Part shown: piece after piece, positions 47,937 through 54,246 of the stretch
Layout of the letters: each line of letters starts with the position of its first letter
Numbering within the stretch: position 1 is the first letter of the stretch
Assembly: GCA_963812605.1 (NCBI GenBank)
Contig: CAWEWF010000005.1
Location: forward strand, 32,001-96,000
DNA from: an uncultured Verrucomicrobiae bacterium
GTDB taxonomy: Bacteria > Verrucomicrobiota > Verrucomicrobiia > Palsa-1439
Direction: 5' to 3'
DNA: 64,000 bases
The notes under the pieces: generated by a model
The model's input: the letters and a program-made list of their open reading frames with translations, nothing else
The model's database searches: none
Told to the model about the DNA's origin: nothing
Translations under genes and position numbers: made by a program

Positions 47937-48410
47937 ATGAACCGCGTTGGAATTGGAATCGACGTGCATCGTTTTGTCCCCGGCCGCAAGTGCATCCTGG
48001 GAGGGGTCGAAATCCCGCACGACGTTGGGTTGGAAGGCCACAGCGATGCAGACGTGCTGGCGCATGCCATTGCCGATGCGTTGCTGGGAGCGGCGGCGCT
48101 CGGGGATATCGGGAAGTATTACCCACCCAACGACATGAAGTTCAAGGACATGAACAGCATGGTCATTGTGAAGGAATGCGCCGAGCGCGTGAGGCAGGCC
48201 GGCGGCCGGATCAATAATATCGACGCCATGATTATTGCCGAAGCGCCGAAGATGGCCCCGCACATCCCGAAGATGCAGGAAATCCTGGGAAAAAACCTGG
48301 GTGTCACGCCAACCCAGGTTGGCGTCAAAGCAACGACCAGCGAGCACATGGGATTCACCGGCCGCGAAGAAGGCATTGTCGTGGTGGCGATCGCCTCGGT
48401 GGAAATGTGA
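47937..48410 (+). CDS. ispF: MECDP synthase
   Basis: GIGIDVH, GHSDADV, GDIG, KATTSE. Confidence 0.96.
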   Translation: MNRVGIGIDVHRFVPGRKCILGGVEIPHDVGLEGHSDADVLAHAIADALLGAAALGDIGKYYPPNDMKFKDMNSMVIVKECAERVRQAGGRINNIDAMIIAEAPKMAPHIPKMQEILGKNLGVTPTQVGVKATTSEHMGFTGREEGIVVVAIASVEM

Positions 48411-49793
48411 AATTTTTCAACACGCTCACGCGGACGAAGGAAGAATTCGTTCCTCTCAAACCGCCGCAGGTCGGCCTGTACACCTGCGGCCCGACGGTGT
48501 ACGGCTTTGTTCACATCGGCAATCTGCGGGCGTTCCTGTTCGACGATTTGCTGCGCCGCTGGCTCGAGTACCGGGGCTTCAACGTCACCCACGTGATGAA
48601 CATCACCAACGTCGAAGACCGCATCATCAACAAAGTCCGCGAATCCGGCCAGTCGCTCAAGGAAGTCACCGATTTCTACACGACTGCTTTCCTAACCGAT
48701 CTCGACACGCTCAACGTCAAACGCGCCCACATCATCCCGCGCGCGACGGAAGCGATTGCCGGCATGATTGCGATGATCGAAAAGCTTATCGTCAAGAATC
48801 ACGCCTACGTGAGCGACGACAAATGCGTGTATTACTCGATCAAGTCGTTCCCCGATTATGGCAAACTTTCACATCGGCGGATCGCCGATCAGAGCGCGGC
48901 GGTTGAGCGCATTAAAAACGACGACTACGATAAGGAAGAAATGGCCGACTTCGCGTTGTGGAAGGCGTGGGACGAGAAAGACGGCGACGTAAAATGGGAT
49001 TCGCCCTGGGGCCGGGCCGACCGGGTTGGCACATCGAGTGTAGCGTGATGAGCATGCAACATCTCGGCGAAGTCTTCGACATCCATTGCGGCGGCGAAGA
49101 CCTGATCTTTCCCCATCACGAGGACGAAATCGCCCAGAGCGAGGCCGCGACCGGCAAGCCGTTCGTCCGGTACTGGCTGCACAATGCGCACTTGCTCGTG
49201 GAAGGCAAGAAGATGAGCAAACGGCTTGGCAATTACTACACGCTCCACGATTTGCTCGCCAAGGGTTGGACGGGGCGCGAAATCCGCTACGTCCTGGCGT
49301 CAGCCCACTACCGCGACCCCTGAATTTCACCTTCGACGGCTTGCAAGGCGCGCGCTCGGCGCTTCAGCGGATCGACGAGTTTCTCCTGAAGTTGCAGGAG
49401 ATGGCGAAACCGCCCTCATCAAATTATGAGCCGGTCCTTAGATTCCTAGTCGAATTCGATGCCAAAATGGACGACGATTTGAACATTAGCGGTGCGCTTG
49501 GAACAGTCTTTGATTTCATCCGATTTACGAACAAGAAGATCGTGGAGGGCTCGCTACGATCGCCAGATGCCCAAGACATTCTTGAGGAGTGGAAGAAAAT
49601 CGACGGCGTCCTCGGCTTCGGCGTGCCGATAAGGTCCGATGTGCCGGTTGCCGTTGAGCGCCTCCTTGTGGAACGCCAGATTGCCCGCAAAGCCAAGGAT
49701 TTCAGACACTCCGACGAAATCCGCGAGCAACTCGTGAATCTTGGTTGGACAGTCGAAGACACTCCGCAAGGCCCGCGAGCGAAAAAACTCTAA
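48407..49793 (+). CDS. cysS: Cysteine-tRNA ligase; two 1-nt frameshifts (~49012, ~49320)
   Basis: CGPTVY, HIGN, DFALWK | [20 protein letters not shown] | LNFT, DDLN; each join repaired by one base in a C/G run. Confidence 0.93.
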
Positions 49794-49832
49794 GCGCCGT
49801 TCCCGCCCAAGTAGCGGATTTCACAATGGTTA

Positions 49833-50647
49833 TCAAAGGTGAAGTGCCCTCTTCTGACGATGAGTCCTCCACAAGTGACCATGTTCGCAGCCGTAGTGAA
49901 TTGCATCAGTTGTGTATGACACGAGGCAGGGAAGACCGAGACAACCGGGCTCGCGACATTGGTCCGTCCGCTCGCCGCACGTGAGCATCTCTGATAGAGC
50001 ATCCATTGCATCGCCGGCGTCTGCGCCGGTAACTGTCACTGCGATATTAGCTCCGGGCTGCCCGGAAAGACAAAGAAGGCCCATGATGCTTCGGGTGTTT
50101 GTAATCGACTCTCCGTCAGAGAGTTGAATTGTTGAACTGAATCGATTGCCGAGTTTTAGAATCAGACAAGCTGTTCGAGCTCCCAATCGCCATTTGAGTT
50201 GGAACTGCCGTTGGACTCGTTTCGACGACCGCGCGCCAGCGACCGGTGGCAATCCGCAGTTAGCCGTCAGGTATTCGAGATCACTAGCGGCTTGGAGCGC
50301 CTGTTCCTTAATTTCTGAAAGGCTTCTTTCACCCGCAAGAAAAGCGCGATGAGGAAATTTTGGAATCCGATCACGGAGTTCAAGATCAAGCAGCGCGTCC
50401 CGGTCCAGATCGCTCTGAAGCAGGAAGGCGCGAATTATTGCGCCGTACTTGGCACATGCGCATGCCCGATGGTTACCATCTAGCACGACGTAGAATCTGC
50501 GACTCCGATCATAGGCTGGGAAGACCACGATTGGAGCCGTTCAATCCCCACTGCCAGATCCTCTCGGAGAGCGTGCCAATACGGAGTGTCGTCGCTGACT
50601 TGATTTGTCAGGACGATCTGCTTCGGAGGGACAACGATTGACTTCAT
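49833..50647 (-). CDS. Putative ParB/Srx-like + HPr-like + Cys/His-tail fusion protein (1-nt frameshift at ~50540)
   Basis: APIVV...YVVLDGNHRAC; LGARTA...FSSTI...RSIMGLL...GADAGDAMDAL; C-x4-C...CEHGHLW; upstream frame from ATG 50647. Confidence 0.65.
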
Positions 50648-51025
50648 TTCCCGAGTGTCAAATAGCCGAAAGCCCGAACGATAGTCGAATGGGTGGCTTT
50701 GAAGAGTTCACGGCGAGAAGTGTAGCGCAACAGAAATCCTTCGACAAGTCGGAGTTCCGGGATGCCACCGAGGCGAAAGACCCGCCCAAGACGTCTCCGT
50801 CATATAGATTATCTTGCGTAGGCTTGCGGCGTTTCCCCGCCAATGGCAAGGCAGCGTTTGTTGAATGCCCGCTGTGGTCGCAATGAACTTGAAGAAGTCG
50901 TGACCTTGCGGCACTTGACCAGTGACACGGACTTGTGTTCCGCGGGTCCACAGCCCTCGCCATGACCCTCCTCATTCAGCGTTGGATTGACAAGGCCGTC
51001 TCGATATGATGTTTGTGTCTCAGCA

Positions 51026-53092
51026 ATGAAGCGCTATCCGCCGATCAATCCCAAGTGCCCGCATTTCCTCCACGGCGGCGATTACAATCCCGACCAGTGG
51101 TTGCAGGCGCCGGAGGTGTTGAAGGAAGACCTGCGATTGATGAAGCTCGCGCACTGCAATGCGATGTCGGTCGGCATTTTCTCGTGGGCCGCGCTGGAAC
51201 CGGAAGAGGGCCGGTTCACTTTCGATTGGCTCGACCGTGTGTTGGACGATCTTGCAAAGAATGGGGTGTTCGCGGTTCTCGCCACACCCAGCGGCGCGCG
51301 TCCTGCATGGATGTCGCAGAAATATCCGGAAGTCCTGCGCGTGAACGCCGACCGGGTCCGCATCCTTCACGGGGCCCGTCACAATCACTGTTACACGTCG
51401 CCGGTTTATCGCGAGAAAACGGCGATCATCAATCGCAAGTTGGCCGAGCGGTACAAGGATCATCCCGCCTTGTTGCTGTGGCATCTCTCGAACGAATACA
51501 GCGGCGAGTGCCATTGCCCGCTGTGCCAGGACGCATTTCGCGCGTGGCTCAAACGACGCTACACTTCGCTCGATGCTGTTGAACCAGGCATGGTGGACCG
51601 CTTTTTGGAGCCATACTTACACCGATTGGTCACAAATTGAATCGCCCGCACCGCATGGCGAGTGGGCGGTTCATGGGCTCAACCTCGACTGGAAGCGGTT
51701 TGTGACCCATCAGACGACCGATTTCATGAAACATGAGATCAGGCCGTTACGCGAGATCACGCCGAAGGTGCCCGTGACCACGAACATGATGGGCACGTAC
51801 ACGGGGTTGGACTATTGGAAGATGGCGCCCGAGCTGGATGTCGTCTCTTGGGACAGCTATCCCGCGTGGCACGGACAAGAAGAGGATTGGCGATTGGGGA
51901 GTTCGATTTCTTTCGTGCACGACATTTATCGTTGTCTGAAAGGCGGCAAGCCGTTCCTCTTGATGGAGAGCACGCCGAGCTTCACGAACTGGCAGGAGGT
52001 CTGCAAGCTCAAGCGCCCCAACATGCACCGGCTCTCGTCGTTACAGGCCGTCGCCCACGGCGCAGATAGCGTGCAATATTTTCAATGGCGCAAAAGCCGC
52101 GGGGCGTTCGAGAAGTTTCACGGCGCGGTTGTCGATCATGTCGGCCACGAAAACACGCGTACATTCCGCGATGTCGCGGAAGTGGGGCAGGTTTTGGAGA
52201 AGCTGGACGCGGTCGTTGGCACAACGATTCGTCCGGAAGTGGCGGTCATCTACGACTGGGAAAACGAGTGGGCCATTGGCGACTTGCAGGGATTGTCGCG
52301 GAAACGTCGTGATTATGGCGGGACTTGCGTGGCGCAATACCGGCCATTTTGGTCGCGCGGCGTGCCCGTCGATGTGATCAACATGGACGGCGATTTTACG
52401 GGCTACAAACTGCTGATCGCCCCCATGCTTTACATGCTGCGACCCGGTGTCGCGGAGCGGATCGAAAGATTTGTGAAACGGGGCGGCGTATTCGTCACGA
52501 CCTACTGTAGCGGAATCGTCAATGAAACCGATCTCTGTTTCCTCGGCGGGTTTCCCGGACCGCTGCGCAAGGTCCTCGGCATTTGGTCCGAGGAAATCGA
52601 CGCGCTTTACGAAGGGGAGACGAATGTCGTTCTGCCCGTCGCGAAGAATGGTCTCGGGCTCGCTGGCCGGTATCAGGCGCGCGAGCTCTGCGATCTCATT
52701 CATGCGGAGACGGCGCAGGTGCTGGCGAAATACGGCGCGGACTTCTACAAAGGCCGTCCCGCGCTAACCGTGAATACATTCGGCAAGGGCCGGGCGTATT
52801 ACATTGCCTCGCGCAACGACGACCGTTTCCATGAAAGCTTTTACGGCGGGCTATCGGCCAACTTGGCCTGAAACGGACTCTCCGCGCCAACCTGCCCAAA
52901 GGCGTCACCGCCCAGATGCGCACCGATGGCGAGCATGACTTTGTGTTCCTGTTGAATTTCCAGCCCGCGGCCCGCAAGGTGAATTTCAGCCGCGAAGCGT
53001 TCACGGACATGACCTGCGGTAAGAGCGTCAAAGGAACCGTCACCATGCCCGCTTACGGCTCGCTGGTCTTGCGCCGCCCGCACGCTGCGTAG
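51026..53092 (+). CDS. GH42 beta-galactosidase; two 1-nt frameshifts (~51578, ~52865)
   Basis: HGGDYNPDQW, WHLSNEY (acid/base), LMESTP (nucleophile), EKFHGA; C-terminal LPKGVTAQMR...YGSLVL in a shifted frame. Confidence 0.92.
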
Positions 53093-53131: not shown

Positions 53132-54246
53132 ATGATTGAAGATTTCAAGAACAAGGTGAGCGATTTGCGCGAACGCCATCAGGCGTTAACGAGGTATCTT
53201 TGACGTCGACAAACAACGCGCTCGCCTCGTCGAGCTAGAGAACATCATGGCCGGCCCGACTTTTTGGGCCGATCAAGCCAAAGCCCGCACGATCCTGGAC
53301 GAAGCGACCACGATTCGCCGCAAACTCGACACGCAGGCGGCCCTCGACCAAAAAATCTCCGACGCGGCCATGCTCATCGACCTCGGTGAAACGGAGCAGG
53401 GGATTGCGGCGGAGGTCAATGCCGCCGAGCAGAAGTTCAACCAATTCGAGTTGGAAAACCTTCTCGGCGAGGAACACGACAAGTCCAACGCCATCTTCAG
53501 CATCCATGCGGGCGCGGGCGGCACGGAGAGTTGCGATTGGGCGAACATGCTCCTGCGCATGTACCAGCGCTACTCCGAATCGCGCGGCTTCAAGGTCGAC
53601 CTGGTGGACATCCAAGGCCGGCGATGAAGCGGGCATCAAGAGCGTCACCATGCTGGTGAGCGGCGAGTACGCCTACGGCTACCTGAAGGCCGAGCGCGGG
53701 GTGCATCGGCTCGTGCGGATTTCGCCGTTCGACTCGAACAAGCGCCGCCACACGTCTTTTGCCAGCGTGGACGTGATCGCGGAATTGGGCGCGTCGGCCG
53801 AAATCGAAATCAAGATGGAAGACGTGCAAGTGGACACGTTCCGGTCCGGTGGCAAGGGTGGACAGAATGTAAACAAGGTCGAGACGGCGATCCGCATGAC
53901 CCATCTGCCGACCGGCATCGTGGTGCAGTGCCAAAACCAACGCAGCCAGTACCAGAACCGCGAGCTGGCGATAGCCATGTTGAAGTCACGCCTCTACGAA
54001 AAGGAGCAGGACGAGAAGCGCGCCGCGATGGAGAAATACTACGGAGAGAAGGGCGCCATGGCCTGGGGCAACCAGATTCGCAGTTATGTGTTCCAGCCGT
54101 ACCAAATGGTCAAGGACCTGCGCACTGGCCACCAAACCAGCGACGTGCAGGGCGTGATGGACGGCGATCTCCAGCCCTTCATCAGCGCCTGGCTCAAAGC
54201 GGGCCAGCCGCGTAACCGCAAGCAGGGTGTGACAGATGAAGAATAA
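53132..54246 (+). CDS. prfB: Peptide chain release factor 2 (programmed +1 frameshift at 53201; additional apparent error at ~53615)
   Basis: 23-codon ORF ending CTT TGA C; GAGGTES, SPF and GGQ motifs. Confidence 0.96.
53191..53204 (+). promoter_or_regulatory. RF2 autoregulatory frameshift signal
   Basis: GAGG-TAT-CTT-TGA-C: internal SD, slippery Leu codon, weak stop. Confidence 0.95.

Follow-up and report, generated by a model that had tools for sequence, protein, structure and literature searches.

The gene and its parts

The window analysed here, a stretch of 64,000 nucleotides from the genome of an uncultured Verrucomicrobiae bacterium living in soil, carries on its minus strand, at 49833..50647, a gene whose product joins an N-terminal domain of the ParB/Srx fold to a C-terminal HPr-like domain that ends in a Cys/His-rich tail. 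The gene is neighboured by cysS and by a GH42 gene and is divergent from the latter, as had been noted in an earlier reading of this DNA from its letters alone (hereafter the sequence-only reading). Both folds are already known, and what is new are the two unnamed families to which the halves belong and their unique combination in one protein. The anatomy of the gene and of its domains, listed below, can be given with high confidence.

49833..50647, minus strand: fusion gene, 271 codons plus the stop once the missing base is counted
50540..50647 and 49833..50537, minus strand: the two open reading frames (ORFs) into which the gene falls in the window, the first holding codons 1-36
50538..50539: one-base deletion, plus-strand G for GG (minus strand gaa-c[c]g-gct), according to a read-derived contig and protein P0001
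50259..50647, minus strand: predicted ParB/Srx-fold domain, residues 1-130, from fold matches and a predicted local distance difference test score (pLDDT) of 91-98 over residues 1-120
50466..50480, minus strand: D57-G58-N59-H60-R61, a GxxR-type phosphate-binding (Box II / P) motif, from alignment A1
50229..50258, minus strand: inter-domain linker, residues 131-140, predicted to be disordered (pLDDT <50 at 130-137)
49971..50228, minus strand: HPr-like domain, residues 141-226, from PF00381 and fold matches
50181..50183, minus strand: codon of Gly156, at the His15 position of HPr in the alignment with 1y4y
50088..50090, minus strand: codon of Ser187, which in the same alignment falls on HPr Ser46, the residue that HprK/P targets in canonical HPr
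49854..49970, minus strand: Cys/His tail, residues 227-265, from the model and from conservation in alignment A2

One gene interrupted by one missing base

In the window, whose sequence is identical in the bacterium's own genome (G000), the downstream minus-strand ORF begins at GTG 50528, ends with the stop at 49833 and reads ...APIVVFPAYDRSRRFYVVLDGNHRAC..., also given as ...VVFPAYDRSRRFYVVLDGNHRAC..., before passing into the HPr-like stretch and the Cys/His-rich end. It is overlapped, one frame off, by a 55-codon ORF that begins at ATG 50647 (MKSIVVPPKQIVLTNQVSDDTPYWHALREDLAVGIE...; MKSIVVPPKQI...LAVGIE). Both frames, with APIVV and YVVLDGNHRAC in the downstream one, had been recognized by the sequence-only reading and are present in the sequence. 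It had also proposed to join them by adding one A at about 50540; the one-base join is confirmed by P0001 and by a read-derived contig, but the base lost is a C on the minus strand (a G behind plus-strand position 50538) and not an A, codon 37 being Pro (GIE-P-APIVV). P0001, which stems from a protein collection and is encoded on another contig, is an intact protein of 271 residues, 100% identical to the 234-residue window query with full coverage, and reads GIE-P-APIVV (GIEPAP) across the break. The read-derived contig, of 385 nucleotides and taken from run X1 at a depth of 2.5, aligns to 50464-50847 without a mismatch, its sole difference being a G after plus-strand position 50538; run X1 may be the window's own source sample, and the contig thus provides read-level rather than independent support. 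Homologues of the N-terminal half (the N family) have P-P-I-V-V at the position of the break.

Frame breaks also occur in the surrounding genes. When compared by tblastn with same-genus orthologues, cysS (48371-49793) is read in three frames (48371-49012, 49009-49320 and 49317-49784), GH42 (51014-53086) is split by two shifts into three pieces, and prfB (53190-54240) contains, at about 53615, a shift that is missing in the same-genus orthologue and is separate from the natural site of prfB. There are hence six frame breaks within about 5.9 kb (48.4-54.2 kb), two in cysS, two in GH42, one in prfB and one in the fusion gene, or about one indel per kb in this part of the assembly. Because six breaks fall within such a short distance, two of them in the essential cysS, they point to an indel-rich assembly and not to gene decay. 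At 50538/50539 the reading frame is almost certainly broken by an assembly error, and the locus holds one real gene of 271 codons, of which the window copy has a one-base assembly deletion. Across this genome, fragmentation of gene calls is to be expected from the indels, and the completeness estimate of 89.96% may be lowered thereby.

The C-terminal half, a pseudo-HPr with a Cys/His tail

The HPr pattern that had been claimed for the C-terminal half from the sequence alone is confirmed by profile and fold matches. With 45.3 bits, PF00381 exceeds its cut-off of 23 and is the sole Pfam match of the protein at E<=1, and NCBIfam TIGR01003 reaches 45.6 bits, slightly below its cut-off of 47.9. In a fold search with the model, residues 143-227 show the HPr fold, an open-faced beta-sandwich: four HPr entries were matched with Z-scores of 11.4-12.6 (root-mean-square deviation (rmsd) 1.1-1.7 over 81-83 residues), the best being 7ff5 (Z 12.6, rmsd 1.1, 82 of 84 residues) and 1kkl_H reaching Z 11.4, and NPr was matched with Z 7.9. 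Foldseek also returned HPr (E 5e-6, TM(target) 0.84), and the best sequence matches among solved structures were HPr and Crh chains. KH-type RNA-binding domains appeared as weak fold matches to this part (Z 4.2-4.9), and ESM Atlas gave no usable match for residues 140-271.

In the alignment with 1y4y, I14-H15-A-R-P-A falls on L155-G156-A-R-T-A and K-S46-I-M-G(-V-M) on R-S187-I-M-G(-L-L), in agreement with the earlier claim that His15 has given way to Gly with the Ser46 motif left intact. Since Gly156 occupies the site of His15, the domain is derived from HPr but is not a phosphocarrier. The replacement is a property of the family: in alignment A2, whose 44 rows come from the best 150 of 328 matches, Gly stands at the His15 site in 42 rows, Trp153 is present in 40 and Arg is found at the Arg17 site in 35, and conservation extends family-wide over K152, W153, R154 and R158 together with the Cys/His tail. 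As for charge, the module has a median isoelectric point (pI) of 6.8 and a median net charge of 0, with a pI >8 in 17/44.

The tail, which the sequence-only reading had already described as C-x4-C...CEHGHLW, reads C231-x4-C236...C254-E-H-G-H258-L-W260. C236, C254 and H258 are each kept in 43 of the 44 rows, C231 in 41 and W260 in 42, and a hidden Markov model (HMM) of the tail alone matches module proteins exclusively, plain HPr never. In the predicted structure the tail forms strands at 241-245, 249-253 and 259-263, with a pLDDT of 95-97 for residues 221-260, and C231, C236, C254 and H258 probably make up a structural zinc site. The C family is a 'pseudo-HPr', defined by the HPr fold, Gly15, a Trp-Arg pair before the old active site and the C-C-C-H tail.

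When compared with known systems, the module shares with HPr and NPr (PF00381) the fold, a Pfam score above the cut-off, Arg17 and the K/R-S-I-M-G helix. In contrast to these proteins, it has no His15 and thus no His phosphotransfer, scores below the TIGR01003 cut-off, possesses the extra tail and is placed among other domains. Crh of Bacillus is likewise an HPr paralogue without His15 that has kept Ser46, and its chains 1zvv, 1mo1 and 1k1c are among the matches. However, Crh, with about 85 residues, stands alone and acts with CcpA in Bacillales, whereas the module is part of multidomain proteins from Verrucomicrobiota; position 15 of Crh is Gln, while the module has Gly15 after a conserved Trp-Arg, a 40-residue C-C-C-H tail and a Ser46 that is not invariant in its family. 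An identity with Crh is not favoured, as multidomain architecture and tail differ.

The N-terminal half, a ParB/Srx-fold domain

For the N-terminal half, the sequence-only reading had proposed a ParB/Srx-like domain, which is supported by the predicted fold but not recovered by Pfam at E<=1. For residues 1-125, the fold search against representative structures placed SerK (5x0b, Z 9.3), sulfiredoxin of A. thaliana (6ky4, Z 8.8, 86/89 residues) and SbnI (5ujd, Z 8.7) on top, followed by KorB-CTP (8qa8, Z 8.0), human sulfiredoxin (1yzs, 7.8) and PadC (7.4), and then by Atu1540 (6.4), Osa (6.1; which we take to have the ParB/Srx fold), the pNOB8 ParB-N (5.8) and Spo0J (4.6). Eight of the nine matches with Z 5.8-9.3 are counted to the fold, Osa among them and the others by title or by passages of PMC12704722, the title of the Atu1540 entry carrying no family name. 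With Foldseek, the N-terminal part matched PadC, Noc, SbnI, KorB, ParB and Srx in the PDB at E of about 1e-2 and, among viral models, phage ParB-like proteins on top, at E 1.5e-4 and up. These matches of the predicted structure support the ParB/Srx fold for residues 1-125.

The most conserved feature of the domain was examined in alignment A1 (37 rows, namely P0001 and 36 of 38 one-domain homologues), where D57, G58 and R61 of the D-G-N-H-R motif are invariant in 37/37 rows, Asn59 is unchanged in the 10 closest and a near-invariant block, E90...F98-P99-x-R101-x-x-L104, follows. According to passages of PMC12704722, GxxR is the P motif of the ParB-CTPase fold, and nucleotide specificity is not predictable from sequence or AlphaFold3.

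At the profile level, several results weigh against the assignment. The protein has no ParB_N (PF02195) match at E<=1; only 1/37 N-family members scores with that model, and this with 20.9 bits, below the cut-off of 26.3; and hhalign of the N family with canonical ParB_N yields a probability of 1.65%, which is not significant, placing ILDGNHRA on LIAGERRW. Searches outside this profile gave little more: the sole match of the N-family profile among solved structures was a spurious one to a designed repeat protein, residues 1-130 have no sequence match to any solved chain, PADLOC matched 0/37 members, and three PHROGs families were each matched by 1-2/37 members, a ParB-like one by 1/37 at E 1.3e-4. 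The Pfam content of the members is mostly none, with HNH_repeat in two, HTH_8 in one and a sub-threshold ParB_N in one. For residues 1-132, ESM Atlas returned no more than leads, in hypothetical clusters, 7/30 matches lying in a set with ParB_N in 27% of its members. Because the N family escapes PF02195, surveys of the ParB-CTPase fold that are built on this model miss some of its diversity; the D-G-N-H-R family comprises 38 clusters among the 150 best matches, unnamed in current profile libraries and undetected by PF02195.

The domain resembles Srx, SerK and SbnI in that these are its top structural matches, in being a single ParB-fold unit without a helix-turn-helix (HTH) or dimerisation domain and in its G-x-H-R type motif, whereas it has no detectable sequence similarity to them and a block of its own, E90...L104. 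Asn59 takes the position of the catalytic Cys of Srx, the motif of which is G-C-H-R; a sulfiredoxin identity was rejected, the motif here being G-N-H-R without that Cys. With ParB, KorB, Noc and PadC the domain shares the fold and the invariant GxxR. Neither Pfam nor the model reveals an HTH or a C-terminal dimerisation domain in the protein, and a canonical ParB of the ParABS type was rejected on these grounds and because its neighbours are cysS and GH42, with no parA partner. A canonical ParB of the same genome is found elsewhere, at C5:346968-347258.

The N family is an orphan that otherwise occurs alone or with C-termini of DNA-binding type (HNH_repeat, HTH_8) and has transposase, HNH or restriction genes as neighbours. 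One locus was found in genome contigs, in a Sedimentisphaerales metagenome-assembled genome (MAG), where the domain is fused to HNH_repeat and adjoins an IS110 transposase; three metagenome loci lie by tyrS, by a transposase fragment and an HNH gene, and, as a weak match, by a methylase-XhoI pair. In viral contigs, 0/123 matches to the N-family pattern were confirmed. Passages of the survey in PMC12704722 describe orphan members of the ParB-CTPase fold as sporadic, near mobile genes and fused to lineage-specific domains, and the N family is like them in all three respects. It differs from the folds surveyed there in having G-N-H-R instead of G-E-R-R and in not being recognized by PF02195, the model from which the PMC12704722 survey starts.

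The locus by tyrS (L061:3568-6411) is a standalone N-family gene of 155 residues just downstream of that gene. The fusion gene, for its part, is found immediately downstream of cysS, with which it converges, and the two aminoacyl-tRNA synthetase neighbours may be a coincidence.

The combined architecture

When P0001 was searched with phmmer against 1.84 billion representative proteins, 328 matches were obtained at E<=1e-3. Among the best 150, one spans both halves (P0001 itself), 38 cover residues 1-146 only, 44 cover the HPr part plus tail and 67 are of plain HPr type. The claim that no protein of this architecture has been described is consistent with these matches, among which only the protein itself appears, and with the literature, a search of which turned up neither an HPr-ParB fusion nor a His-less HPr bearing a metal-binding tail. 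The main text of PMC12704722 mentions none of the terms HPr, phosphocarrier, phosphotransferase and PF00381, and the supplements of this paper may list rare fusion partners.

The structure was modelled with AlphaFold2 from a 41-row alignment (A4) of short members of both families, inspected by eye, which gave a pLDDT of 92.4 and a predicted template modelling score (pTM) of 0.55; a 73-row combined alignment (A5) was left out because it misaligned the two families, and single-sequence AlphaFold2 reached a pLDDT of 35 only. Both halves are modelled at a pLDDT >90, and standalone family members end at the domain boundaries. When the N domain and the module were predicted as a complex with ATP and Zn, the outcome scored 0.31 against a mark of 0.32 and carries no weight either way.

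The homologues cover one domain only, an outcome that the sequence-only reading had named as a sign of a chance chimera or misassembly; the first part was found, while the evidence speaks against a misassembly. That the two halves are joined by assembly error alone, in a chimeric contig, is extremely unlikely. In favour of a chimera, the assembly is indel-rich, the read-derived contigs placed on the stretch span 50464-50968 and leave the domain junction outside, and homologues among the best 150 of 328 matches never span both halves. Nevertheless, the same junction is present in the window contig and in the 82,002-base contig of P0001, which may share data; it consists of an in-frame linker between two complete domains, with uniform composition across it, and the flanks of the insert that carries the gene are clean against 12 relatives.

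Occurrence of the pseudo-HPr module

The module was followed by a pattern scan of one genome per species, in which Verrucomicrobiota were assigned by record titles. Six module loci were found, all of them in Verrucomicrobiota MAGs. Two (L054 and L056) encode standalone modules, and two others encode proteins with an N-terminal module and a C-terminal EIIA_2 domain of the phosphotransferase system (PTS), of 473 residues (L055:5980-7401) and 438 residues (L058:2804-4120), which are 76% identical to each other. L059:4440-8121 encodes a protein of 490 residues composed of a receiver, a Toprim_Crpt zinc ribbon and the module, and in a same-family relative (L006) the module stands behind an unrecognised N-terminal region. 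Receiver-module fusions also occur among metagenomic proteins (P0002, P0004), and the cluster members that were looked up are unnamed metagenomic proteins, save one annotated as HPr-family. The Gly15 and C-C-C-H module, for which the 150 best matches include 44 clusters (50% identity), is a family unnamed in current profile libraries. An A2 search of G000 and 400 other genomes of the phylum gave, among the matches listed, a clean match into the tail in G000 only; in one G159 row the tail is reached only if 2 stop codons are read through, plain HPr makes up the remaining listed rows, and another 202 matches lie beyond these.

Some details of these proteins and loci may be added. The Cys/His tail of L058 is unaligned in its second half, and L055 adjoins two DDE transposase genes. 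L059 has a HEPN_AbiU2-like gene upstream and, 10 nucleotides downstream, a gene for a 549-residue RNase_T-type exonuclease, a context that looks defence-like. P0002, P0003, P0004 and P0008 have in common an N-terminal peptide of about 35 residues (...ALV..P.A.EK..PG.KRILS.M...L.L...) without a Pfam match, which precedes either the receiver domain or the module itself.

Such a distribution bears on a rival explanation, which appears rather unlikely, according to which the HPr fold was taken over outside the PTS: as an output domain, the module would bind a target, either nucleic acid or another ligand, and replace the DNA-binding domain of a mobile-element ParB-type switch or nuclease that uses nucleoside triphosphates (NTPs). 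The module indeed stands after a receiver in P0002, P0004 and L059, N-terminally in the EIIA_2-ending proteins of L055 and L058, and here after a ParB-fold domain whose relatives have HNH_repeat or HTH_8 in its place. Its conservation lies on K152, W153, R154, R158 and the Cys/His tail and not on Ser46, L059 is located between HEPN_AbiU2 and RNase_T-type exonuclease genes, N-family genes lie by transposases, HNH genes and a restriction-modification pair, and KH-type folds are weakly matched. However, the module is not basic, judging from the pI and charge given above, the KH matches with Z <5 are within the range of chance arrangements, the tail has no match to a DNA-binding family, and the EIIA_2 fusion, together with the kept Arg17 and Ser46 helix, is more simply understood as a surviving PTS connection.

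A possible link to the regulatory PTS

The preferred explanation takes up this connection: being fused to EIIA_2, the module would still be part of the PTS world. The check for hprK that the sequence-only reading had suggested is positive, as enzyme I (EI), a canonical HPr (105 bits) and HprK are encoded side by side on the same contig (G000:C5:~17900-20550), about 12 kb before the window's first base, and the genome has five EIIA_2 matches as well. Together, enzyme I, HPr and HprK make up a regulatory PTS of the kind usually seen in bacteria that lack PTS sugar permeases. In a relative (L013) the usual order is ribosome hibernation factor, hprK, HPr and ptsI. The Ser46 helix of the module (TRSIMGLLCL) is nearly identical to that of the bacterium's own HPr (GKSIMGLMML), Ser occupies the site in 7/7 genome-derived modules, and HprK was found in 3/5 other module-bearing genomes searched. 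Since HprK is present in the genome, the helix matches and Ser is kept in all seven modules, phosphorylation by HprK is possible, and regulation of the fusion protein by this kinase is a plausible hypothesis. An NTP-dependent enzyme switched by HprK had been suggested in the sequence-only reading.

According to the mechanism proposed, the N domain would bind an NTP through GxxR and supply the activity, be it as a switch, a nuclease or a phosphotransferase. Because the pseudo-HPr is unable to carry phosphate on His, it would serve as a docking or regulatory domain that ties this activity to the regulatory PTS, most likely through phosphorylation of Ser187 by HprK/P or, alternatively, by binding EI or EIIA-type partners, and the tail would hold a structural zinc. 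A PTS-linked regulatory mechanism of this kind is possible and rather doubtful, and the best explanation as a whole, comprising the anatomy and the mechanism, is tentative, falling somewhat short of an even chance. In its most specific form the proposal is unlikely: the module would be an unrecognised signalling domain of Verrucomicrobiota without His phosphotransfer, addressed by HprK/P at the Ser46 site, which links the regulatory PTS, and with it carbon/nitrogen status, to unrelated effectors, phosphorylated Ser187 gating the NTP-dependent action of the ParB/Srx domain. In the present protein the effector would then be a ParB-fold NTPase, in other cases a receiver or EIIA(Ntr) protein, and the modules would constitute a new class of HprK/P substrates. 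Were the module to work as proposed, the targets of HprK/P would extend beyond HPr and Crh, and the regulatory PTS of bacteria without sugar-transporting PTS permeases would have a direct output.

A number of observations count against this proposal. The Ser46 site holds Ser in 24/44 rows of A2 and Asp or Glu, a replacement often seen at phosphosites, in 9/44; as Gly15 and the C-C-C-H tail are kept in 41-43/44, the core function of the family does not need Ser46, and the strongest conservation lies on Gly15, Trp-Arg, Arg17 and the tail. HPr Ser46 is, moreover, conserved also where HprK is absent, which makes its presence weak evidence, and in 2/5 other module-bearing genomes, whose completeness is not given, HprK was not found. 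Among the six module and four N-family loci there is no conserved neighbour, nor does any N-family gene adjoin a module gene. Finally, the pTM of 0.55 means that the two halves have no fixed placement relative to each other, and no fusion orthologue is found among the best 150 of 328 matches, so that selection on the combination is not demonstrable.

The conserved Ser could also be served from within the protein. In this alternative, which is very unlikely, the N domain would be a phosphotransferase of SerK/Srx type acting on Ser187 of its own module, as a self-contained switch independent of HprK. The top N-domain folds are phosphotransferases and not DNA clamps (SerK 9.3, Srx 8.8, SbnI 8.7), G-N-H-R is nearer to the G-x-H-R of Srx than to the G-E-R-R of ParB, and the fused module presents a conserved Ser on an exposed helix. 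On the other hand, the two families are mostly found apart, the model has no fixed contact between the halves, and SerK, according to PMC5120207, uses free serine and not a peptide serine.

Genomic setting and acquisition

The gene lies on a segment that sets this genome apart from its relatives, delimited by the following features.

49794..51013: insert of about 1.2 kb with the gene, between cysS and GH42, matched in none of 17 same-genus genomes
50648..51013: spacer of 366 bp from the gene start to GH42
49790..49810, minus strand: terminator-like hairpin with a T run, 23 nucleotides past the stop; a weak candidate, with 3 such sites against 1.9 expected in shuffles

The 1,243 bases between cysS and GH42 (query part 1386-2628) were matched in 0/17 same-genus genomes, whereas cysS was matched in 17/17 and GH42 in 13/17. 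In 12/13 of the latter the two genes abut, with 26-41 bp between them in eight that are fully aligned and similar distances in four after allowing for unaligned cysS ends, and both flanks of the insert are clean against these 12 relatives. The insert has a GC content of 0.544 against 0.58 for the window. The atypical codon usage claimed by the sequence-only reading is borne out, the GC content at third codon positions (GC3) of the gene being 0.50 against 0.62-0.79 in nine neighbouring gene pieces; it is low in both halves, with 0.48-0.61 in the N-terminal and 0.52 in the C-terminal part. From the unmatched insert and the low GC3 of both halves, it follows that the gene was horizontally acquired as one unit at a variable site. 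Its architecture is not conserved and represents a single-lineage fusion on a horizontally acquired insert.

A fusion of this origin may of course be a functionless accident, in which two accessory genes became fused either on their transfer into an insertion hot spot or earlier, the product perhaps decaying, a reading that is quite improbable. It would fit the singleton architecture among the best 150 of 328 matches, the insert that is unmatched in 17 same-genus genomes, with another 2-kb insert at the same junction in G012, the foreign GC3 and the frame-broken window copy. However, the 271-codon frame is open apart from the one base supplied by the read-derived contig and P0001, all family-invariant residues of both halves are present, both halves are modelled with a pLDDT >90 within boundaries that match the ends of standalone members, and the same assembly breaks essential genes, hence the frameshift is uninformative on decay.

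The insert of G012 (L053, G012:C25:163200-165700) differs from the present one, measures about 2 kb and contains long minus-strand ORFs of 384, 159 and 140 residues; the cysS-GH42 junction looks like an insertion hot spot. In the 366-bp spacer, no sigma-70-like site, no Rfam match (E<=1) and, in its two ORFs, no Pfam match was found. Further along the window, the heptamer CTTTGAC occurs on the plus strand at 53198-53204, inside the first tblastn segment of prfB (53190-53615) and 49 nucleotides ahead of the ATG with which the first listed prfB ORF begins. The heptamer is probably the natural programmed +1 frameshift site of release factor 2 (RF2), and it has 12 matches in the window against 8.2 expected.

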